From the IMG/VR virus record IMGVR_UViG_2671180724_000008: a stretch of 64,000 nt of DNA. One strand, given 5' to 3'. The stretch is from a virus. Lineage: Duplodnaviria; Heunggongvirae; Uroviricota; Caudoviricetes. This document shows positions 8,736 to 62,542 of the stretch, in pieces. Both the position numbers and the translations under genes were made by a program. Within the stretch, counting starts at the first letter, position 1; the number at the start of each line of letters is the position of its first letter. A model generated the notes under the pieces. That model saw only the letters and a program-made list of their open reading frames with translations, was not told the DNA's origin and did no database searches.

Positions 8736-9044
8736 TTATTGAACAGACTCTACAGCCTTACGATTGGTGTCAAATAGCGCATCAACGAACTGTGCCGATG
8801 ACTCGCTAGATTCGCAATCCAACATTGCCCTTTCTTCATTTGCCACTTTCTTACACAGTTCCACATTCTCACCTATCGCTTTTCCTGCTTTTACGGCTGC
8901 CGAAAATTGATACATGCAAACTGATACATTCTGAGACGTTGAGCACACGTCATTCATCAGCGACTGAATGACAGGCTTATAGTCCATTGCATTTGCCGCA
9001 ACTGAGCAAAGTAAAAATAATGGTGGTAACAATATCGATTTCAT
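8736..9044 (-). CDS. Secreted small protein (N-terminal signal peptide)
   Basis: Hydrophobic leader ending in AANA; several Cys residues. Confidence 0.55.
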   Translation of the reverse strand: MKSILLPPLFLLCSVAANAMDYKPVIQSLMNDVCSTSQNVSVCMYQFSAAVKAGKAIGENVELCKKVANEERAMLDCESSESSAQFVDALFDTNRKAVESVQ

Positions 9045-53843: not shown

Positions 53844-54042
53844 GCGGGAGAAGGAAACGCTTCATGAAATCAGTAAGTGGCCGGAGTTCCCTGAGTACTG
53901 GAAGCCTAAAACGCGGGCTAAGTTAGAGCGGTTAGGGTTGGTTGCAAACGTTTCTGAAACGTGGTGTTCGGCCAACTACCAGTTAACTGATAAAGGGAAA
54001 GTATTGCTACAGCAATTAGTAGAATCAGGAGCGTTCAAATGA
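53827..54042 (+). CDS. Hypothetical small protein
   Basis: 71-aa ORF; ATGA overlap with next gene. Confidence 0.45.
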   Translation: MIVLSKREKETLHEISKWPEFPEYWKPKTRAKLERLGLVANVSETWCSANYQLTDKGKVLLQQLVESGAFK

Positions 54043-54191
54043 TTCCATACATCTCATTAGCTTTTATGGGTGGCTTCCTTATTGGCTTCGGCATCTGTCG
54101 TGATTTAATTAAGCAGGAACTTAAAACCAAAACACTGTGCATCGGAAAGCGTGTGTATCGGGTAGTTCATGAAACAAAGGTGAAAAAATGA
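54039..54191 (+). CDS. Small membrane protein (50 aa), paralogue of 53664-53843
   Basis: MIPYISLAFMGGFLIGF... single transmembrane helix; RVYRVVHETKV motif; ATGA overlaps on both sides. Confidence 0.4.
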   Translation: MIPYISLAFMGGFLIGFGICRDLIKQELKTKTLCIGKRVYRVVHETKVKK

Positions 54192-54990: not shown

Positions 54991-55255
54991 AAGACGGGAT
55001 TGTTGTGTAGGTTTAACCACTGTTGCCATTGGTGCCTGTTTTCACAACAAATGATTCCATACATCACATTGTATAAATTACAAAGTAGGTGCTGTCCTCA
55101 GAAACATCATCTACTTAAAGATTTTGCCTTCTACTATTGAGCGAAGTCGAAAGCGTCTGGCACTAACGAAAAGTGCAAGTAGCGGTGCGTTTCCTGGCAG
55201 AAACTAAACCGTCGCGATTGGCACTGTTGAGTAATAAATACTGGCAGTGCTGAAT

Positions 55256-55331
55256 TGATGGTGTAGCTCAGCGGTAGAGCAGTTGGCTGTTAACCAACTG
55301 GTCGGTGGTTCGAATCCACCCACCATCGCCA
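55256..55331 (+). tRNA. tRNA-Asn (anticodon GTT), phage-type
   Basis: Manual cloverleaf fold: acceptor GATGGTG/CACCATC, anticodon loop CTGTTAA, T-loop GGTTCGAATCC, encoded CCA; differs from E. coli tRNA-Asn. Confidence 0.85.
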
Positions 55332-55336
55332 ATTTA

Positions 55337-55423
55337 GGGGAGTTAGTCCGTAGAGGTAGCGGTGTAGACTGTAAATCTACTGTCATTGCGACTCGGGTGG
55401 TTCGACTCCATCACTCCCCACCA
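55337..55423 (+). tRNA. tRNA-Tyr (anticodon GTA) with long variable arm
   Basis: Acceptor GGGGAGT/ACTCCCC, anticodon loop CTGTAAA, T-loop GGTTCGACTCC, encoded CCA. Confidence 0.8.
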
Positions 55424-55427
55424 AATT

Positions 55428-55503
55428 GCCGGTTTAGCTCAGTTGGTAGAGCGCCTGCCTTGTAAGCAGGATGTCAGCGGTTCGTGTCCGTTAACCGGCA
55501 CCA
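55428..55503 (+). tRNA. tRNA-Thr (anticodon TGT)
   Basis: Acceptor GCCGGTT/AACCGGC, anticodon loop CTTGTAA, T-loop GGTTCGTGTCC, encoded CCA. Confidence 0.8.
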
Positions 55504-55507
55504 ACAT

Positions 55508-55595
55508 AATATTGAGAACATTGGCGTAACGGGGTCATATCCCAATCTATGAATAAATGTTACGTTGCCGCGTGACAACCAGTGTTCTCAACATT
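55508..55595. repeat. Nested inverted repeat immediately 3' of tRNA-Thr (aatattgagaacattgg / ccagtgttctcaacatt with inner cgtaac/gttacg)
   Basis: Read directly; candidate processing element or small structured RNA. Confidence 0.55.
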
Positions 55596-56170
55596 GTGGT
55601 GAATGCACAGGCTGATGTGCCGCAACTACAGTAGTGCGCGCTTTGCGGGGCTTGCTACAACCCTGTGTCGGAGATCAGCGCCGACCATCACAATTTGGCT
55701 CTCTTGCAACAGCATAACGCTGAAATATGTCCAACCTGGTGCGGCCTGTTCACCCGCCGTTAGCTCCACGAAACGGAGCGCACAACAGATAAGAGAACTT
55801 CCCATATGGGGCTTGGCTTAAATGCATCGAGTTCTCTTATCGCTGTGTCACAGACAAATTTCCGACAGCCCTGTTTATCATCGGACGCAACCTAAAAGGT
55901 CGAGGCAAAGCCAGGTAATAGCGGAGGGAGTGACACAGCACACAACAGGTAAGAGCATTTGTAGAGTTCGACTCTCTACCGTGGGCTTTTTCCCGCGATG
56001 CGAGCCATAAATGCTCTTTCCGTTGTGGTGGATTCGCAGACTGATGCGATAGCTTTCTTGGATGTTAGGGAAATGCGGCCGCAAATCTTCCCTTTCGCGA
56101 GCGGTGATCGTCCGTAGTCCTAATTGGCTGCACCGTATGCCGGAGATTCAGTACCGGCCACCACAACGGC

Positions 56171-56257
56171 CGGAGAGTAGGGAGCATGGTGCTCAAGCGG
56201 TCTTGAAAACCGTCCCATTGTGCAAACGATGATGGTTCGATTCCATTACTCTCCGCC
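56171..56257 (+). tRNA. tRNA-Ser (anticodon TGA) with long variable arm
   Basis: Acceptor GGAGAGT/ACTCTCC, anticodon loop CTTGAAA, T-loop GGTTCGATTCC, encoded CCA. Confidence 0.8.
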
Positions 56258-56260
56258 AGA

Positions 56261-56336
56261 CACAGCGTTGAGCGGTTTGGCCTTTTAATCAACTCGATTA
56301 AGACTCCGCTAACATAAACCAGACCGCTCAACGCTG
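56261..56336. repeat. 19-bp-arm inverted repeat immediately 3' of tRNA-Ser (acagcgttgagcggtttgg / ccagaccgctcaacgctgt)
   Basis: Read directly; one mismatch, 38-nt loop. Confidence 0.6.
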
Positions 56337-56414
56337 TGATAGACAATTACGGCAGACGTTCTTAACCATAGCTTGCTAACATCCTAGCAACACTTTTTTT
56401 CAGCGCAAAATTCA

Positions 56415-56436
56415 AAGGGGCTTCGGCCCCTTTTTT
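56415..56436. terminator. Bidirectional rho-independent terminator
   Basis: ggggc ttcg gcccc hairpin with A-run upstream and tttttt downstream; sits between the tRNA region and the end of the minus-strand gene. Confidence 0.7.
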
Positions 56437-56453
56437 GAAAGCAATGGGCAAGT

Positions 56454-57788
56454 TCATGCCAAATTATCCAGATTTCTTTTCTTTTTTTCAATTATATTTC
56501 TCGCGCCAGAAAAAATTTTACTCAAAATAATTGATTTGCTTGCTCTATTATTAAGATGTAACAACGCGCTATAAAATACATAGTTATCTATTTTACTATT
56601 TAAAGTATTCCCAAGCTTCCCGTTATATGTGCTATTAATAGTATTAAAATATACATGTTCAGGACCTATATTACAAATACCCCTATCAACTCGCTTTAAA
56701 TAATGTTTAACTAAAGAAATAGCATCTTCCTTATCATTAATAACATAAAGTCCTGAGCGTTTACCTAGCTTGCTGTCCGAGAATAATTTATAACCAACAA
56801 GTTCATTTAACGTATTATCCACTTTTGTCAACTCTTTGTTGGCAATCTCCAAATAATACTCAATCTCTTTCTCCATATTACTTATTAAAGAGTTAAATTC
56901 TGCTCGTAACAAATCACCACCAGGTGATTTATAACTCCATAAAATTGAATTGGTAATACGTACTACGTCAGATACTTCTGGTTTCTCTGAATAGTTTTTG
57001 TATCTAGTGCAAATAATGCTGTGCTTTATATATTCTCTAACTAATGATCGATAATCCCTTTCGAAAAGGTTTTTGACATCTAGTCTTCCATTGCTTGTTG
57101 TTATTAAGGTGGTGTTTAAAACTGGGTCGCCTTCAAAAAAATTATATTTATTTAGTAATCGTTTTAGCTTGTGTGAATTATGTGATGTTTCGCCATAATA
57201 ATTTATCCCAAAAATAGCAATTATTAGCATAACATCAGGAGTGATGAAATGTCGTAATTGCTCGGCATAAACTTTTTTATCTTCGATTTTCGAAGATGGA
57301 GAGTAAAAACCTTTGTCTATATATTCTAATATTGAAACAATATTACTAACATAACGTATAAAAACTTGATTCATTACAACGGAATCATAAACCTGATGCA
57401 AATAATCTACTCTCAAGTTGTTTTTTATTTTTTCCCCTGTACTAGATGATAACTCTTCTTTTACCTGCCCAAGTAGCTTTTCGTGGTGCTCCAGCAATGT
57501 TTTAAACCATTGTTCAAATGATGATTTTCTTGCCTCAGTTAATGAATCTGATGTTATCTGGACAGCTTTCATAGCTGCTTTCGCACTTTTCTTTGCTTCA
57601 TAAGCGTTCCATGCTGAAGCACAAAAAGCTGCCGCCGTGATGCAACTGGTAAAAATAGAAATCCTATCTGCAACATTCAAGCTCCAGAACCAATCAGACG
57701 ATGAAATCAAAACCACAGATATTACGGGAACAATGAAAATCAAAACAGGCATGTATGTACTCGCTCTAATAGTTATTAGTCGAGGCAA
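56454..57788 (-). CDS. Low-GC 444-aa membrane-anchored protein of unknown function (candidate abortive-infection or defence cargo)
   Basis: Two N-terminal transmembrane segments then a large Lys/Asn/Tyr/Ile-rich soluble domain; strongly AT-rich codon usage unlike the rest of the element; own promoter and terminator. Confidence 0.6.
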   Translation of the reverse strand: MPRLITIRASTYMPVLIFIVPVISVVLISSSDWFWSLNVADRISIFTSCITAAAFCASAWNAYEAKKSAKAAMKAVQITSDSLTEARKSSFEQWFKTLLEHHEKLLGQVKEELSSSTGEKIKNNLRVDYLHQVYDSVVMNQVFIRYVSNIVSILEYIDKGFYSPSSKIEDKKVYAEQLRHFITPDVMLIIAIFGINYYGETSHNSHKLKRLLNKYNFFEGDPVLNTTLITTSNGRLDVKNLFERDYRSLVREYIKHSIICTRYKNYSEKPEVSDVVRITNSILWSYKSPGGDLLRAEFNSLISNMEKEIEYYLEIANKELTKVDNTLNELVGYKLFSDSKLGKRSGLYVINDKEDAISLVKHYLKRVDRGICNIGPEHVYFNTINSTYNGKLGNTLNSKIDNYVFYSALLHLNNRASKSIILSKIFSGARNIIEKKKRNLDNLA

Positions 57789-57845
57789 ATATTATATAAA
57801 TCTCGTTATGATTTACAGACATGTATACGTATTGCTAATTATCAC

Positions 57846-57883
57846 CAACAAATGATAGGTGTGTACATATCTATCATTTGTTG
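57846..57883. promoter_or_regulatory. Perfect 13-bp inverted repeat caacaaatgatag / ctatcatttgttg in the divergent promoter region
   Basis: Read directly; lies between the start of the minus-strand 444-aa gene and the plus-strand glutaredoxin gene. Confidence 0.55.
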
Positions 57884-57930
57884 TAAAATTAATGTATACG
57901 CTATGAATACACTAATAATATGAGGTAATC

Positions 57931-58176
57931 ATGACTATCGTTATCTACGGACGAGATAACTGTTCATACTGCAAACGTGCGGTCGAGCTGGCGAAGCAAC
58001 TAAAGGGACATGGCTACGGTGATTATGAGTACATCGACATCACTACTACCGGTATCGATAAGGAAAAACTTAGCGAAATTGTTGGTAAACCGGTAGAGAC
58101 TATACCCCAGGTACTGATCGATGGCCAGCCGATTGGCGGATACACAGAACTGGCTGCATACGTCAGCACCCTCTGA
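57931..58176 (+). CDS. Glutaredoxin (NrdH/Grx-like)
   Basis: 81 aa with CSYC active-site motif near the N-terminus and thioredoxin-fold length. Confidence 0.75.
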   Translation: MTIVIYGRDNCSYCKRAVELAKQLKGHGYGDYEYIDITTTGIDKEKLSEIVGKPVETIPQVLIDGQPIGGYTELAAYVSTL

Positions 58177-58180
58177 TTTT

Positions 58181-58206
58181 AACGGCTCACAGGAGCCGTT
58201 TTTATT
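58181..58206 (+). terminator. Rho-independent terminator after glutaredoxin gene
   Basis: aacggctc acag gagccgtt hairpin plus ttta. Confidence 0.6.
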
Positions 58207-58254
58207 CCCACCAAACTCACTCCCGTTTCCCTTAAAATTCAAAAAACAACGTCA

Positions 58255-58288
58255 AAATGATTCCATACCTACTATGTATGGAATCATT
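58255..58288. promoter_or_regulatory. 13-bp inverted repeat aatgattccatac / gtatggaatcatt (7-nt spacer) upstream of integrase
   Basis: Read directly; the half-site aaatgattccatac also occurs at 54031-54050 and 55046-55063. Confidence 0.55.
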
Positions 58289-58386
58289 CGTGAAAATGAG
58301 TTACTTTTACTCTTGATCCTATAAGAATCTATGCCTAATATACTGTTTACTTATACAGTGAATCGGCGTAACTCGGTGATTGTCAT

Positions 58387-59490
58387 ATGAAAAATAGCTT
58401 TGACAGAGCACGCGCTGCGGAGAACACCTCAAAAGAGGCGATTGAGTATCTCGAAAGAGCATCTCAAATGCAGGCCGTTATGATCTCGCAGGTTAGCAAT
58501 GACATGAGATTCTCGGACGCATTCATGTTATTCACTCGCTTATCTCTGCTTATAACCAGACGTCGGCCAGAGATCGCTGTTCATTGTATTTTGATACATG
58601 TTTTGCCGCACATTGCTGATGTAAAAGTAAGTGACATTAATAGGTTCATGGTGAACCAACTGGTAAACCCACTAATACTGGATGGCAAAATTGTTATGGG
58701 CCGCCGCGTTTTCTCTCTGATGAAGCAGTTCCTTAGCTGGTGCGCCTTCCAGGGGATGATAGACGTGTCACCGTTAAACGATATGTCACTAAACAAAGTT
58801 GCCGGTGGCGCAAAGCCCACACCTCGCGAGCGGAAGCTGACCGACGCAGAGGTATGGGTGTTCTGGAATATATGGGACTACTTCAATGTGTGCGCTGGTA
58901 CAAAATGGGCGGCCAGGCTGTGTCTTGTATCAGCAAGACGACCTGACGAAGTACTGCGGGCTAAAAAAAGTGAGTTCAATCTTAAGCGTGGGGTTTGGAA
59001 TCAAGGCAAGAGAAACAAGTCAGCACGTGAGCATTCGCTGCCTTTAAGCACATTAATGCGCACATGCATTGAAGAGTTGTTCGAATACGGTAAAGACAGC
59101 CAGTGGCTCGTGCCTTCGAATAAAAAAATCGGGAAAGACCTTCCTATGTCTAAAGTGGCAATAGCCCAGGCATTACGTCGTATTCTGGAACGACCAGAAC
59201 TGATGGAGCTTGAGCCATTTACACCCCGAGATTTGCGCCGTACTGCGCGTAGTTACTTCCCAGCATTAGGCATAAGCCAGGAGGTATCACGCAAAATCAT
59301 GAACCACAGTCTTGAGGGGATAGATCGGGTCTACGACCGGCACGATTATATGGACGAGATGCGAGACGCCTTAGAAAGTTTCTCGACGTACATCGCATCA
59401 ATCGTAGAGCAACCGGATTTAGACGAAATTGACCACAAATTCAAGGGAGATCGTCTATCAACAGAGCTTATTCGTGTAAATTTTTCATAG
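58387..59490 (+). CDS. Tyrosine integrase (site-specific recombinase)
   Basis: C-terminal catalytic pattern: Arg in RRPDEV, HSLEGIDRVYDRHDY region with His/Arg and terminal Tyr; 367 aa. Confidence 0.85.
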   Translation: MKNSFDRARAAENTSKEAIEYLERASQMQAVMISQVSNDMRFSDAFMLFTRLSLLITRRRPEIAVHCILIHVLPHIADVKVSDINRFMVNQLVNPLILDGKIVMGRRVFSLMKQFLSWCAFQGMIDVSPLNDMSLNKVAGGAKPTPRERKLTDAEVWVFWNIWDYFNVCAGTKWAARLCLVSARRPDEVLRAKKSEFNLKRGVWNQGKRNKSAREHSLPLSTLMRTCIEELFEYGKDSQWLVPSNKKIGKDLPMSKVAIAQALRRILERPELMELEPFTPRDLRRTARSYFPALGISQEVSRKIMNHSLEGIDRVYDRHDYMDEMRDALESFSTYIASIVEQPDLDEIDHKFKGDRLSTELIRVNFS

Positions 59491-59871
59491 AGACTTTATG
59501 GCCTCAACAACCTTTTGTGATGCGCCTTTCTCTTTACCGAATCGCTCGTTATATGCAGCAAGAACCTGTTTTTCGTCCTCGTTAAGAGGAGCGGTGCCTT
59601 CTTTGTATAAAAATGCTGCGAGTTCAGGTTGGCGTTCTTCCAGCACCATCATCATAAGACGACTTGGCTCAATACCCAGCGCCAGCGCCAGCGGACGAAC
59701 CTTATCGATAGGCAAAGGAATTTTGCCACTTTTAATTAAAGAAAGGTTGTTGGCATTTTTATAACCAATAAGTCTGGCTATTTGGGCCTGACTCATAGGT
59801 GAGGATTCAATCAGCCCTGCGATAAAAGCAGCATAGCGACTTTCTATAAATTCAATCTTGTTGTCAGACAT
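59485..59871 (-). CDS. XRE-family helix-turn-helix transcriptional regulator (CI/Cro-like repressor)
   Basis: HTH segment SQAQIARLIGYKNANNLSLIKSG; convergent with integrase, 6-nt overlap. Confidence 0.75.
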   Translation of the reverse strand: MSDNKIEFIESRYAAFIAGLIESSPMSQAQIARLIGYKNANNLSLIKSGKIPLPIDKVRPLALALGIEPSRLMMMVLEERQPELAAFLYKEGTAPLNEDEKQVLAAYNERFGKEKGASQKVVEAIKSL

Positions 59872-60122
59872 TGTTACAACCTTTGCGCGTTTAATTCTCT
59901 CTGGTAAGTGCTTACCGATATTACATCAAAGGTTAGGGTTGTAAAGCTATTATCATTTTTTTCGGCAGGCACTTGTAAGACCGAGCAAAGGTCCATGCAT
60001 GGAGAAAAACTAGCCCAAAATAGGTAAGAAAATTAACTTGCATCTGATATAGATGTATTCAGTATTGATACAAATTTTAGTAGTATTCCTTACCATAGTA
60101 TAAGTTAGAATGGATTGATTGA

Positions 60123-60335
60123 ATGAAAACCACTATTTCCAGCCTAATCGCTCTTGAGATCGGACACGTACAGAAATTAGCTGATGAGTGTGTAGCTGAC
60201 ATCCTCACCGATCTACCGAATGAGCAGATTCAGGTTGGTGTGAATGACACAACTGGCTTTATATTCGAACTTAACAACAAACGCTTCACGCTTCTCAATA
60301 CCGGCTCCGGGTCTTTAGCCGTCAGAATCTGTTAA
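60123..60335 (+). CDS. Hypothetical small protein
   Basis: 70-aa ORF divergent from the repressor gene. Confidence 0.4.
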   Translation: MKTTISSLIALEIGHVQKLADECVADILTDLPNEQIQVGVNDTTGFIFELNNKRFTLLNTGSGSLAVRIC

Positions 60336-60433
60336 CCCCTCTTCTCCCTGCGCGAATGGCTTAGTTCCCTGTTCGCGCAGTGCTACATTAAACACACTAG
60401 TAAATAATTTGTTTTCATAACAAAGGATTAGCC

Positions 60434-62542
60434 ATGTCTAAAAAACGTTCCATCAAAGAGGTTCAGGACTTCCGTGACAGTGTAAAACGAGTAGTCGCTC
60501 TCCTTTCAGGTAAAAACATCCCTGTTGCAGAACGAGGGGACGACGCTTATGTACGCTATAACGATGATGGAGAGCCAATTCTCGTAAACATCCCATCAAT
60601 CCCGGATAACGCAACACCGGCATTGATGAATGCTGTGCGCGGATTTCTCGATCATGAGGTTGCTCACATTTTGTTTACCGATATTCGTGTGTCCAACAAA
60701 ATGAGAGAAAAAGGACGCGTTCCTTCCTGGTCGCTATGGAATGCCTTAGAAGACGTGTTCATCGAGCGAAAAATGGGGCAGGTCTTTAACGGAACAAGAC
60801 GTAATCTGATGGCAACTCAGCGCCTTATAATCGAAAAAGTCTTTAAACCAAAGGCTTCAGAGGCTATTGCTTATTGTGGCAAAGATCAGCGCGCGCTTTT
60901 TCTAAACTTCTTTCTCTGTCCGGTTGTAAGAGCCTGGGATGGCCAAGCACCGTTCGTAGATTTCATGGATGAATACTGGCCTGTCATTGAGAAACCAATT
61001 TCATTATTAAAAGAACATGGTATCGATGTGGCCGTGCGTAACATGTCTTGCACCGAGGATTGTGTAAAGGTGGCTGCGACCATAGCTAAGATCCTCAAAG
61101 ACACTGAAAGTGAAAGCAAAGGTAAGGAGTCAGCTCCGGGAAAAACTTCCGATCCTTCAGACGCTGACCAGACGGATGCCTCTGGAGAAAACAATGAAGA
61201 CAACGAAGATCATGAGACACCCTCAGCGTTAGATAATCACAAATCTATCGAATCAGAATCACACAGTAAGCACAAACATGATAATAACGACAGTGATGAT
61301 TCAGATAATTCTGAATCATCAGAAACAATATTCGATGATACAGAAAATGATAAAGAGGTATCAGATTCTGATGCTTCTGATAACGCGGCGTCAGAATCAT
61401 TAACCGCTGGCCACGAAAAAAGAAAAACGACAGAAGACGGCTCTTCAGATATTCCAACTCCGTCAAAAATGAGTCTGGAAGAGGCTTTAGAGGAGCTGGA
61501 TAGCATAGAAGATGAAGTCGGAGGCATGACAGAAGATGCTCTATCCGAAACGATTAAAAGCGAGTTAACAGAAAGCTCGAAAAGCGAATACAGGCCATAC
61601 AATCGCTCATACGACTTCATCGGCTCGATTGATCAGGCAGAAGCCCATATCAAACGGCTTATTAAAACATTCTCCGATATTGATTTAGGAGGATATCCAA
61701 TCAGCCGCTATCGCATCGTTCCTGAAGGCAACCAGCTCTTCGACAAATATATTGAAAAGCATCTTTCGTCAGGTGTTTCGTCGACGCTGGCAAAAGACCT
61801 GGAGCGAGCAATAGCAAGCAGAAACAGAGTTCAGTTTATACCGGGCCAGCGTCGGGGGCGCATTCATGGTTCTAGTATCTACAGATTAGCAATGAATGAT
61901 GATCGCGTGTTTCGTAAAAAAGAAGAATCTAAAGCCGTTAACGCCTGTGTTCAACAAGTGATTGATTTATCAGGTTCAATGAGTGGCGAAACGATAAAAC
62001 TAGCTCTTGCAAGTGCATATACCATCGCCGATGCTCTTGATCGAATAAATGTTCCCAACATTATCACCGGCTTCACTACATTTGGCAGTCATCTGGCAGC
62101 GATAGAACTTAAGGCTATCAAGTATGAGTTCTCTCGCTTTGAATCTTTAATGCTACCTATCATCAAAAATTGGAATGAAAAAGCAAATTCTCGCGAAGTT
62201 CGCTCACGTATGGGGTGCGTAGGCTACACATTCCCACTTCTTAATAACGTGGATGGTGAAAGCATAGCCAGCCTTGCATCGTTATTTTCCGGTCGCATGG
62301 AGGACAGGAAGATCATGCTTGTTCTGAGCGATGGCGAGCCGCTGGCTGTTGGGAGAGGTTTTGACGCTCATTTGCGTTCGGTTGCGAAGCAAATTGAAAC
62401 GCAGACTGACATTGATTTGATGGCAATTGGCATCATGACTGACGCACCGGAGAGATTTTACGCAAATCATGCCCTGGTAACGAGCGTTGATAGTCTTGGT
62501 TCATCTGTAGTTACTGAACTATCTCGTATCATTTTGAAGTGA
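60434..62542 (+). CDS. von Willebrand factor A (vWA) domain protein with acidic Ser/Asp-rich linker (CobT-like)
   Basis: C-terminal MIDAS motif DLSGSMSGE; long acidic low-complexity linker around residues 230-330; 702 aa. Confidence 0.7.
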   Translation: MSKKRSIKEVQDFRDSVKRVVALLSGKNIPVAERGDDAYVRYNDDGEPILVNIPSIPDNATPALMNAVRGFLDHEVAHILFTDIRVSNKMREKGRVPSWSLWNALEDVFIERKMGQVFNGTRRNLMATQRLIIEKVFKPKASEAIAYCGKDQRALFLNFFLCPVVRAWDGQAPFVDFMDEYWPVIEKPISLLKEHGIDVAVRNMSCTEDCVKVAATIAKILKDTESESKGKESAPGKTSDPSDADQTDASGENNEDNEDHETPSALDNHKSIESESHSKHKHDNNDSDDSDNSESSETIFDDTENDKEVSDSDASDNAASESLTAGHEKRKTTEDGSSDIPTPSKMSLEEALEELDSIEDEVGGMTEDALSETIKSELTESSKSEYRPYNRSYDFIGSIDQAEAHIKRLIKTFSDIDLGGYPISRYRIVPEGNQLFDKYIEKHLSSGVSSTLAKDLERAIASRNRVQFIPGQRRGRIHGSSIYRLAMNDDRVFRKKEESKAVNACVQQVIDLSGSMSGETIKLALASAYTIADALDRINVPNIITGFTTFGSHLAAIELKAIKYEFSRFESLMLPIIKNWNEKANSREVRSRMGCVGYTFPLLNNVDGESIASLASLFSGRMEDRKIMLVLSDGEPLAVGRGFDAHLRSVAKQIETQTDIDLMAIGIMTDAPERFYANHALVTSVDSLGSSVVTELSRIILK

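Follow-up and report, generated by a model that had tools for sequence, protein, structure and literature searches.

The tyrosine recombinase gene (int) found in this 64-kb stretch of DNA (hereafter the window) and a 33-bp palindromic site just upstream from it probably constitute a self-contained, two-part multimer-resolution module of the Cre/loxP kind, carried by an extrachromosomal phage-plasmid. The pair is a backbone module of the SSU5 supergroup and not an insert. Residence on plasmids, combined with the presence of a conserved target of its own next to the gene, suggests that Int most likely separates plasmid copies rather than inserting or excising an island. We infer that Int binds and catalyses strand exchange at the site and that its role is in dimer resolution. 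New in this analysis are a LexA box predicted over the int promoter, a set of distant oriented half-sites and a palindrome, GGTAAGTGCTTACC, at the promoter of the neighbouring helix-turn-helix (HTH) regulator gene.

The window belongs to a circular phage-plasmid

The entire window is collinear with Cyrano/pLF82, a circular E. coli phage-plasmid of the SSU5 supergroup. The alignment runs end to end along the circularly permuted Cyrano sequence (91557 to 108379, then 1 to 46703) and reveals no host DNA in the window, all of which is phage-plasmid sequence. The metG gene (40-1473), beside which the initial annotation had placed a "left junction" and an att site, is itself borne by the element (CYRAN_100 in Cyrano); thus, no att junction exists there. 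Nor is there an integrase that placed the element beside metG, as nothing has integrated: metG is plasmid-borne and the int module is never chromosomal in the genomes surveyed. Among 5,426 complete E. coli genomes, 252 carry the module, at 254 places, every one of them on a plasmid (254/254, 0 chromosomal). The complete labelled records among the genome loci are likewise plasmids (4/4). In PLSDB the int family is found on 932 plasmids, including Y. pestis pMT1 and Salmonella plasmids of pHCM2 size (about 106 kb), and some of the carriers have resistance genes. The Cyrano plasmid is present in about 5.5 copies per chromosome (PMC9928086). The element-borne metG, the plasmid-only places and the collinearity with Cyrano rule out an integrated element with its att site at metG, and this false annotation is now removed.

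Int is a tyrosine recombinase lacking an arm-binding domain

58387-59490, plus strand: tyrosine recombinase ("integrase", Int), 367 aa; PF00589, E = 4.7e-10

Int comprises a core-binding and a catalytic domain, with no arm-binding domain. Among 61 sequences, the catalytic residues R185, K211, R284, H307 and Y316 vary little or not at all, and the His-II position is an arginine (R281) throughout the family. The arm-binding domain PF13356 (DUF4102) is present in the outgroup proteins (P0114-P0120) and absent from all those above them in the hit list (P0001-P0113); aligned against the P4-type outgroup, the Int family has an N-terminal deficit of approximately 80 residues. Both comparisons indicate that the family lost this domain. 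The closest solved folds to the AF2 model (pLDDT 87.5) are lambda Int chains, including the 75-356 construct (E = 2e-7 to 1e-6). In the Foldseek ranking, lambda Int, Tn1549 Int and Xer proteins precede Cre, which comes at rank 34 (E = 4e-3, 10% identity). Int also matches the NF007246 (PRK09692) integrase-domain model (E = 1.5e-8) and phrog_1 "integrase"; searching PDB sequences gave no match, and no PADLOC model matched. In both fold and sequence, Int is closer to the integrative lambda/P4-type enzymes than to Cre or Xer, which counts against resolution.

A true integrase, with the palindrome as attP core and the phage-plasmid occasionally integrating into the chromosome or another replicon, would fit the descent of Int from P4/lambda-type integrases. 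A 7-bp overlap between crossover points, the length of the spacer described below, is typical of that branch. Moreover, the contigs bearing a few of the family members are very large (0.5-0.9 Mb), an observation that also counts against plasmid resolution. For one such member, P0006, the large-contig places collapsed as similar, with mostly the same neighbour genes; since these neighbours are unchanged, the site is no junction there. The absence of the module from the chromosome in all complete E. coli genomes (0/254 places), the lack of an arm-binding domain and of arm-type repeats adjoining the core, and the perfect symmetry of the arms compared with typical attP cores make this reading very improbable. 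Surveys of phage-plasmids also speak against it, chromosomal captures being rare and apparently integrase-independent (PMC12977533).

The Cyrano annotation lists no further site-specific recombinase. Host XerCD was considered as an alternative resolution system and set aside: a search of Cyrano for a dif/cer-like site gave nothing convincing, the one match having 5 mismatches. The papers searched gave nothing specific on the function of the pMT1/pHCM2 integrase and leave the role of the gene unaddressed.

A symmetric 33-bp site accompanies the recombinase gene

58256-58288: full recombination-type site; 13-bp arms AATGATTCCATAC and GTATGGAATCATT, 7-bp spacer

The arms are perfect 13-bp inverted repeats and the spacer, CTACTAT, is asymmetric and AT-rich. 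The inverted repeat reported ahead of the integrase at 58255-58288 is real, at 58256-58288. By our own arithmetic, about 0.001 perfect 13-bp inverted repeats at one fixed spacing are expected by chance in 64 kb. As single-stranded DNA, the site folds with -12.1 kcal/mol (z = -6.3), a value equalled by none of 200 shuffles. The palindrome was listed by a local inverted-repeat scan and missed by the whole-window scan; the miss is probably a tool artefact caused by the extra half-site copies (see below). The site lies 98 bp upstream from int and 24 bp upstream from the -35 of the int promoter.

An inverted repeat of the 13-7-13 type is found upstream of all 65 related int genes (Int identity 45-100%), at distances ranging from 45 to 250 bp. 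It also precedes int on non-phage megaplasmids of Pantoea and Rahnella; on megaplasmids of Pantoea, Rahnella and Erwinia, conservation is confined to int and the site, and the neighbours are GGDEF, H-NS, MFS and LysR genes. No protein other than the recombinase accompanies the site at every locus. Symmetry holds at arm positions 3-13 in at least 59 of the 63 distinct sites, and in the flanks at chance level only. Two arm substitutions separate the variants ATGATTCCATAC and TGACTCCAGAC, each mirrored on the opposite arm. All 180 plasmid records inspected (180 places) contain a single copy of the site. Together, these comparisons support the palindrome as a true functional site linked to the recombinase.

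Other roles for the palindrome were considered. It is not the grxA terminator, as the actual hairpin followed by a T-run lies at 58181-58200. It is not an operator for the HTH protein either, because it persists beside int at the megaplasmid loci, where the HTH gene is absent. Its arms resemble the T-arm of a nearby tRNA-Ser (common sequence GATTCCAT), a likeness that is not significant (about 0.1 expected by chance). A literature search for the arm sequences returned only unrelated primer coincidences among the matches listed.

The palindrome, standing just upstream of int, could be only an operator, recognised by Int itself for autoregulation or by another factor, and no crossover site, which would count against resolution. 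Its location 24 bp ahead of the -35 agrees with this, as do the single copies of the arm motif scattered in the element, reminiscent of the dispersed operators of a regulator. On the other hand, the recombinase is the sole constant companion of the site, 13-7-13 with an asymmetric, AT-rich spacer is the geometry of a crossover site, and the distance to the gene varies by some 200 bp (45-250). Furthermore, the left arm is precisely where homology between lineages begins (breakpoints 58251-58256), so that exchange of DNA at the site is indicated. In PhiR41_1, 5.9 kb left of the site are replaced, the replacement ending at the site. We consider an operator-only function improbable. The spacer occurs in either orientation relative to int, which is neutral for resolution, though the resolution model does not predict it.

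Variable DNA left of the site is very unlikely to be a mobile island

54039-54053, plus strand: half-site H1, ATGATTCCATACATC; one site arm plus ATC, exact 12-mer match
55051-55065, plus strand: half-site H2, ATGATTCCATACATC; some 200 bp ahead of the tRNA cluster, in non-coding DNA
56172-56258: tRNA-Ser
56454-58176: variable cargo left of the site (AbiC-like ORF and grxA)
56454-57788, minus strand: AbiC-like ORF, GC 34-39%
57931-58176, plus strand: glutaredoxin gene grxA
58993-59004, minus strand: degenerate half-site copy within int, 2 mismatches in the window

The flank to the left of the site is unalignable in any of the 8 lineages compared. Segment 56441-57930 of the window has no counterpart in Cyrano, and no PADLOC model matched the AbiC-like cargo protein. 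Block 55333-60335 is missing from a single relative, phage SSU5, in which int and the HTH gene have been lost jointly. As SSU5 propagates without the module, the latter is dispensable for lytic growth; this also counts against a resolution role.

Extra half-sites lie 2-6 kb from the full site, on both sides of it and in both orientations. H1 overlaps the start codon of a 50-aa ORF, is oriented toward the full site and is conserved in Kluyvera, Klebsiella and SSU5. H2, also oriented toward the full site, stands out as the longest stretch without variation in an intergenic alignment that has otherwise diverged; it has one mismatch in SSU5, which lacks int. The copy within int is an exact 14-mer in Kluyvera and pMT1 and an exact 13-mer in Klebsiella; part of the match may be a coincidence due to the VWNQG codons. 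The "spacers" next to the half-sites differ within a genome and do not match the spacer of the full site, making strand exchange between them unlikely. H1 and half-site H3 are inverted to each other and have 20 identical bp in common in E. coli. A synthetic query for the H1 x H3 inversion junction found none in 368 plasmids; the latter result and the differing spacers argue against inversion of the shufflon/Rci type, notwithstanding the occurrence of half-sites in both orientations. To our knowledge, oriented half-sites at kilobase distances are a feature of no known simple resolution system, and no resolution model explains them.

The integrase had been suggested to mark a nested island (about 56.4-59.9 kb), integrative or excisable, with the tRNA-Ser or the palindrome as att site. 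Indeed, the cargo between H2 (55051) and the full site differs between lineages, H2 and the left site arm are direct repeats, and SSU5 lacks 55333-60335 as a single block. However, the 3′ end of the tRNA-Ser is not repeated: between the tRNA region and the remainder of the window, only chance-level 11-13-mers recur. The end-points of the SSU5 deletion do not fall at half-sites, and the half-site spacers, being unlike that of the full site, render strand exchange unlikely. The synthetic H2 x site deletion junction has no contiguous match in any of 200 matching plasmids, which argues against excision of the cargo between these two sites. Lastly, int belongs, with the site and the HTH gene, to the ancestral backbone, and the CobT/CobS neighbours are kept across genera. 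With neither repeats of the tRNA-Ser nor excision or inversion junctions at the site or half-sites (200-368 plasmids), a nested island is extremely unlikely.

The int promoter carries a putative LexA box and converges on a regulator gene

58313-58341, plus strand: putative int promoter; -35 TTGATC (58313-58318), 17-bp spacer, -10 TAATAT (58336-58341)
58341-58360: LexA (SOS) box TACTGTTTACTTATACAGTG; CTGT-N8-ACAG core perfect at 58343-58358
59485-59871, minus strand: HTH (XRE-like) regulator, 128 aa; phrog_8 "transcriptional regulator", E = 7.5e-12
59903-59916: palindrome GGTAAGTGCTTACC, candidate operator over the HTH transcription start
59918-59945, minus strand: leftward sigma-70-type HTH promoter; -35 TTTACA, 16-bp spacer, -10 TAATAT
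60042-60087, plus strand: second conserved intergenic block, ATCTGATATAGATGTATTCAGTATTGATACAA...TAGTAGTATT, from alignment conservation
60123-60335, plus strand: small conserved ORF, 70 aa, phrog_2627; first gene of the rightward operon

The int promoter was read from the sequence; its score of 8/12 falls below the threshold of the scanning tool, which therefore made no call. The block containing it is conserved in the alignment of E. coli, Kluyvera, Y. pestis pMT1, Buttiauxella and Klebsiella elements. The LexA box matches the consensus at 16/20 positions and abuts the -10. It is kept in 7 loci from these 5 genera, invariably 50-52 bp past the site, a conservation over the predicted int promoter from which we infer LexA control of int. 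Only one good LexA box is present in the window and two in the whole 108-kb Cyrano, the second preceding a gene for an S24 peptidase (UmuD-like). Phage-plasmids of Xenorhabdus, Photorhabdus and Morganella lack the box despite having the same int-HTH arrangement.

The HTH gene converges with int, as initially annotated, the two overlapping by 6 bp in the window. The overlap of the 3′ ends is 6-9 bp in E. coli, Klebsiella and Citrobacter elements, and a weak terminator-like hairpin, inside the HTH gene (59711-59727), is all that is found between the two. The HTH gene adjoins int in all SSU5-type phage-plasmids and is missing at the megaplasmid loci. Its product matches Pfam HTH_19 below threshold (E = 0.0015, 18.9 bits vs a cut-off of 30.2) and has no S24 self-cleavage domain by Pfam; a PDB sequence search returned nothing useful and PADLOC gave a weak "control protein" match only. 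The homologue in Cyrano, CYRAN_45, was regarded as a putative repressor by the authors of that study and is expressed in the lysogen (PMC9928086).

The anatomy of the HTH intergenic region is that of a regulatory switch, in keeping with its first description as a lysogeny-switch region: the leftward promoter is conserved, and so is the palindrome that covers its start. This promoter is the only promoter-like match made by the scan across 58150-60450, and both its hexamers fall within conserved alignment blocks. The GGTAAGTGCTTACC palindrome lies 2-15 bp downstream from the -10 and is related to a genome-wide family of 20-bp palindromes (ATAGGTAAGTnCTTACCTAT). The CTCTGGTAAGTGCTTAC block that holds it is invariant in six lineages, the background identity being about 70%. 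Additional GGTAAG/CTTACC hexamers are found at 60023 and 60089, bringing the number to 4 in about 250 bp (0.12 expected), a density unmatched by other 251-bp stretches of the window. Motifs of the GGTAAG type are thus present by the HTH gene as proposed initially, but only the first palindrome is conserved in relatives, the other two half-sites not being so. The HTH protein is likely to be the prophage repressor, and the GGTAAG motifs are candidate repressor operators. The second conserved block is probably the rightward promoter/control region of the operon comprising the small ORF, CobT, CobS and DnaE.

An SOS-repressed promoter would be unexpected for a housekeeping resolvase. The LexA box could instead belong to an SOS-coupled switch: LexA cleavage would fire int, and head-on transcription, through antisense effects or transcriptional interference, would lower the level of the HTH repressor and trigger the lytic cycle, with recombination by Int as an additional or secondary activity. 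Such a switch would be compatible with resolution. Consistent with it are the conserved LexA box, one of just two good ones in Cyrano, the 6-9 bp overlap of int and HTH gene with only a weak hairpin between them, and the lack of an S24 domain in the HTH protein of elements that are nonetheless inducible. Ciprofloxacin or mitomycin C induces Cyrano and other SSU5-like phage-plasmids (PMC9928086; PMC9600943). Against it, the three genera named above keep the arrangement without the box, an unrecognised LexA-controlled antirepressor may lie elsewhere in the element, and the HTH protein is a repressor by prediction only. We regard the switch as rather unlikely. A more elaborate version, restricted to the SSU5-type elements of E. 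coli, Klebsiella and Yersinia, would have the int transcript colliding with the repressor gene to bring about induction, and Int also occupying the oriented half-sites over about 9 kb in a higher-order complex. This appears unlikely; we know of no described precedent among plasmid prophages for a recombinase acting as both the sensor arm of the SOS response and an architectural protein.

Discussion

Plasmid multimer resolution remains the interpretation that we favour. Int monomers would bind the two 13-bp arms, two sites would synapse, and strand exchange would span the asymmetric 7-bp spacer, in the manner of Cre on loxP or XerS on difSL. Since each monomer has one site, the natural substrate would be the direct-repeat pair in a plasmid dimer. 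Recombination would convert multimers to monomers, enabling ParAB to partition a low-copy plasmid. If different plasmids also recombined at the site from time to time, the hotspot of cargo exchange to its left would be explained. LexA is predicted to repress int transcription in the clade of E. coli, Klebsiella and Yersinia elements, and the likely prophage repressor would be the product of the convergent HTH gene, whose own promoter is overlapped by a palindrome.

Clinical Enterobacterales commonly harbour phage-plasmids of the SSU5 supergroup. Although integrases are generally described as missing from phage-plasmids, int is present in every group analysed here. Assigning a defined 33-bp target to this enzyme offers a testable explanation for stable inheritance and would account for the exchange hotspot, where morons, defence-like genes and tRNAs occur directly left of the site. 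The two natural classes of arm specificity (ATGATTCCATAC and TGACTCCAGAC), with the enzyme, are a candidate for a new tool pair of the Cre/lox kind. The LexA box beside a putative repressor gene provides a concrete lead on how SOS-inducible plasmid prophages might sense DNA damage.

Comparison with known recombination systems

The closest functional parallel is Cre/loxP of P1: a tyrosine recombinase of a plasmid prophage adjoins its own simple target, made of two 13-bp inverted arms and a short asymmetric spacer, with one site per genome and no arm-binding domain in the enzyme. In P1 the role of Cre/loxP is multimer resolution (PMC7969092), and the same would be expected of Int. The differences are that Int has no detectable sequence relationship to Cre, that its spacer is 7 bp long instead of 8, that its promoter has a LexA box, that half-sites lie at kilobase distances and that its activity is a prediction. 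The resemblance is one of function, not of family membership. The integrases of P4, CP4-57 and lambda give the best sequence and fold matches to Int, and the catalytic residues agree; Int differs from them in having neither PF13356 nor arm sites, in its perfectly symmetric core and in never being found at a chromosomal junction.

In XerS/difSL of streptococci, TnpI/IRS of Tn4430 and ResD/rfsF of F, the site lies directly upstream from the recombinase gene, the two moving together as a module. The int module resembles these systems, here compared by their general descriptions, in having a gene-adjacent site. In TnpI/IRS, extra copies of the recombinase-binding motif serve as accessory sites beside an inverted-repeat core; these Tn4430 repeats fall within about 100 bp of the core, whereas the half-sites of the int module are 2-6 kb away.

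The integron gene intI is a LexA-controlled recombinase gene. Control of induction by LexA is documented in the phage-plasmids N15 and GIL01 (PMC11652158). The likeness to the present element lies in the SOS box over a tyrosine recombinase promoter, predicted here, and in the nature of an SOS-inducible plasmid prophage. In N15 the target of LexA is an antirepressor gene; here it would be a recombinase gene that converges on the gene for a putative repressor.

The element and its metG gene

The initial annotation read the window as an integrated element with an att junction at metG, and suspected a nested island around the distant integrase. Both interpretations proved wrong, although the features on which they drew (palindrome, recombinase, convergent HTH gene, GGTAAG cluster) are real.

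40-1473, left edge of the window: phage-plasmid-borne metG, methionyl-tRNA synthetase gene (Cyrano counterpart CYRAN_100)

Local alignment showed the entire window to be collinear with circularly permuted Cyrano (91557->108379->1->46703), where CYRAN_100 is annotated as a full-length MetRS gene. Megablast of 55-64 kb gave 96-99% identity to E. coli plasmids ~110 kb in size, as well as to phages Cyrano, CMS-2020a and PhiR41_1. The first 8 kb, metG included, are ~97% identical to the same plasmids, whereas chromosomal metG is only 90-95% identical to the window gene. Hence the window holds no chromosomal junction, and the question of why an integrase lies 57 kb from an att junction no longer arises. 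Carriers have two metG genes, the plasmid copy and the chromosomal one. Cyrano/pLF82 is an SSU5-like phage-plasmid; ciprofloxacin induces it, and it is maintained at ~5.5 copies per chromosome (PMC9928086).

A recombinase and its palindromic site

58256-58288: palindrome, AATGATTCCATAC-CTACTAT-GTATGGAATCATT, found by a local inverted-repeat scan
58387-59490 (+): recombinase ORF (int), PF00589 match

The palindrome has a fold z-score of -6.3. Its identification as the grxA terminator was rejected, the terminator being separate, at 58181-58200. With each species represented by a single genome, a scan identified 62 loci of the Int family (45-86% identity). All 62, as well as four of four additional phage or plasmid loci, carry upstream of int, at a distance of 45-250 bp, an inverted repeat that is perfect or nearly so and has a 7-bp spacer. 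The arms are of two types, ATGATTCCATAC in Escherichia, Klebsiella, Kluyvera, Yersinia, Buttiauxella and Chimaeribacter, and TGACTCCAGAC in all remaining loci. The types differ at two positions (T/C and T/G), each change being mirrored on the opposite arm. These double changes separate two clades, and the evolutionary events behind them may be few. Symmetry of arm positions 3-13 holds in 59-63 of the 63 distinct sites; at flanking positions it is at chance level only. Each plasmid has one copy of the site (180 records). Alignments between lineages start exactly at the left arm, with nothing alignable leftward; in PhiR41_1, the 5.9 kb left of the site are replaced, the replacement ending precisely at the site. 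Megaplasmid loci, where the neighbours are GGDEF, H-NS, MFS and LysR genes, conserve nothing but int and the site, which excludes the HTH protein as the site's partner. Comparative evidence thus argues that recombinase and palindrome are one module. No description of the site was found in the searchable literature.

Int conserves the catalytic residues Arg, Lys, Arg, His and Tyr; the His-II position is Arg across the whole family. The nearest outgroup proteins are P4-type integrases carrying the arm-binding domain PF13356, an N-terminal segment missing from the Int family. The AlphaFold model (pLDDT 87.5) most resembles lambda Int chains, among them the 75-356 construct (core-binding plus catalytic domains); Cre is a remote structural match. 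Int thus descends from the integrase branch, whereas its site has the simple architecture of the Cre/Xer type.

The spacer is found in both orientations relative to int, even between nearly identical elements. In a comparison of the window (58269-58275) with PhiR41_1 (9014-9020) and NZ_CP072690.1, it is inverted (CTACTAT against ATAGTAG) in some elements whose Int is >99% identical. The Pantoea-type clade also has both orientations (26 vs 13). Legitimate site-specific recombination by the recombinase itself cannot flip the spacer; template switching inside the palindrome is a plausible neutral cause.

Oriented half-sites

54039-54053 (+): half-site, exact, arm extended to ATGATTCCATACATC
55051-55065 (+): half-site, exact, arm extended to ATGATTCCATACATC, non-coding
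Cyrano 47010 (-), just past the window's right end: third half-site, in dnaE, 6 kb right of the site

The arm 11-mer occurs five times in complete Cyrano (two arms plus three half-sites) against 0.05 expected, and all half-sites point toward the full site. Their positions are conserved in Kluyvera, Klebsiella, pMT1 and SSU5, including wobble positions inside dnaE. The non-coding half-site is the sole invariant run of its intergenic region and is mutated in SSU5, itself without int; the unrelated replacement DNA of PhiR41_1 bears its own plus-strand half-site. Half-sites are absent from the other arm-type clade, and synthetic-junction searches yielded neither inversion nor deletion products. 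Our best guess is that they are accessory Int-binding sites.

The int coding sequence itself bears the arm motif across its VWNQG codons (58993-59004, minus strand). Degenerate in E. coli, the motif is an exact 14-mer in Kluyvera and pMT1 (L002-L004, position 6607), an exact 13-mer in Klebsiella (L086, position 13478) and has one mismatch in Buttiauxella (L005, position 6607). It may be a coincidence or a fourth half-site.

Variable DNA left of the site

56454-57788 (-): 444-aa ORF of low GC (34-39%), sub-threshold matches to PF16872 (E = 2.9e-4; putative AbiC abortive-infection family) and phrog_18168

In the variable zone left of the site, this ORF, with no PADLOC match and no Cyrano counterpart, resembles strain-specific cargo of a defence type. 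The tRNA region, whose gene content varies among close relatives, belongs to the same zone. The window (55257-55503, 56172-56258) has tRNA-Asn, -Tyr and -Thr, then, after ~670 bp, -Ser; in Cyrano the genes for Asn, Thr and Ser are tightly clustered, and Asn is the only one in SSU5 and pJN2-26. Cyrano also carries the 555-bp CYRAN_43 (L001 4506-5060) between grxA and the palindrome, with no counterpart at 58176-58256 of the window; its expression in lysogens is reported to be ~723-fold over prophage background (PMC9928086). The insertion is an example of the site's left flank acting as a hotspot for morons.

Phage SSU5 (L087 12601-12664), which gave the group its name, lacks the block 55333-60335, tRNA-Asn running straight into CobT. 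Missing are the extra tRNAs, cargo, site, int, HTH gene and small ORF, consistent with loss of a lysogeny-and-maintenance module, SSU5 having been isolated as free virions.

The HTH gene and predicted SOS control

59485-59871: HTH gene, 128 aa, convergent with int and overlapping it by 6 bp
59903-59916: palindrome GGTAAGTGCTTACC
59945-59918 (-): predicted leftward promoter, TTTACA -35, TAATAT -10

Together with GGTAAG/CTTACC hexamers at 60023 and 60089, GGTAAGTGCTTACC forms the window's densest such cluster, initially annotated as operators. Palindrome and promoter lie in a block invariant in six lineages (CTCTGGTAAGTGCTTAC...GATATTACA...GGGTTGTAAAG), the palindrome over the predicted transcription start; conservation does not extend to the half-sites at 60023 and 60089. 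The rightward promoter is probably in a second conserved block, at 60042-60087. A 20-bp family (consensus ATAGGTAAGTnCTTACCTAT), to which the palindrome is related, has 11 matches in the window, where 0.11 would be expected, and ~17 copies in Cyrano, mostly intergenic, some positionally conserved across genera.

20-bp motif starts: 11954, 15211, 17246, 18753, 20669, 42445
20-bp motif starts, continued: 47416, 47533, 50967, 51682, 54489

These AT-rich palindromes are genome-wide. Most precede operons on the plus strand, and conservation of some extends to Klebsiella, Citrobacter, Kluyvera and SSU5. By analogy with P1 they could be dispersed repressor operators, or else a phage-specific promoter or RNA element.

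Between site and int start codon lies a conserved putative promoter (TTGATC -35, 17-bp spacer, TAATAT -10), directly followed by a predicted LexA box, TACTGTTTACTTATACAGTG, with a perfect CTGT-N8-ACAG core. The box keeps its offset unchanged across E. coli, Kluyvera, pMT1, Buttiauxella and Klebsiella and is absent from loci of the other arm-type clade. Cyrano has just one other good LexA box, TACTGTATGTGTATACAGTA at 89277 (L083), outside the window and 34 bp upstream of the S24-peptidase (UmuD-like) gene CYRAN_98. SSU5-like phage-plasmids are SOS-inducible (PMC9928086; PMC9600943), and a self-cleavage domain is lacking in the HTH protein. A candidate SOS input is therefore the int promoter, which converges on the HTH gene. 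We consider such a role, rival or complementary to plasmid multimer resolution, rather unlikely.

Distribution and proposed role

Int homologues occur across Enterobacterales, mostly on contigs of about 100-120 kb. Family loci include Y. pestis pMT1, Kluyvera, Buttiauxella, Xenorhabdus, Photorhabdus and Morganella, and large plasmids of Pantoea, Rahnella and Erwinia. Of 5,426 complete E. coli genomes, 252 carry the module; its 254 places include no chromosomal one. The family occurs in 932 PLSDB plasmids; in the phage collection the module was found only in E. coli and Klebsiella phage-plasmids. The Cyrano annotation contains no second site-specific recombinase, nor did we find a convincing XerCD site in Cyrano. 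Given these data and the single site per monomer, multimer resolution would be the most economical function of the module. The best-supported reading of the sequences is a widespread, new, Cre/loxP-like recombinase-and-site pair that would act on plasmids as Cre/loxP does, under clade-specific SOS control. The role proposed for Int is that of Cre in P1, where it resolves multimers (PMC7969092).
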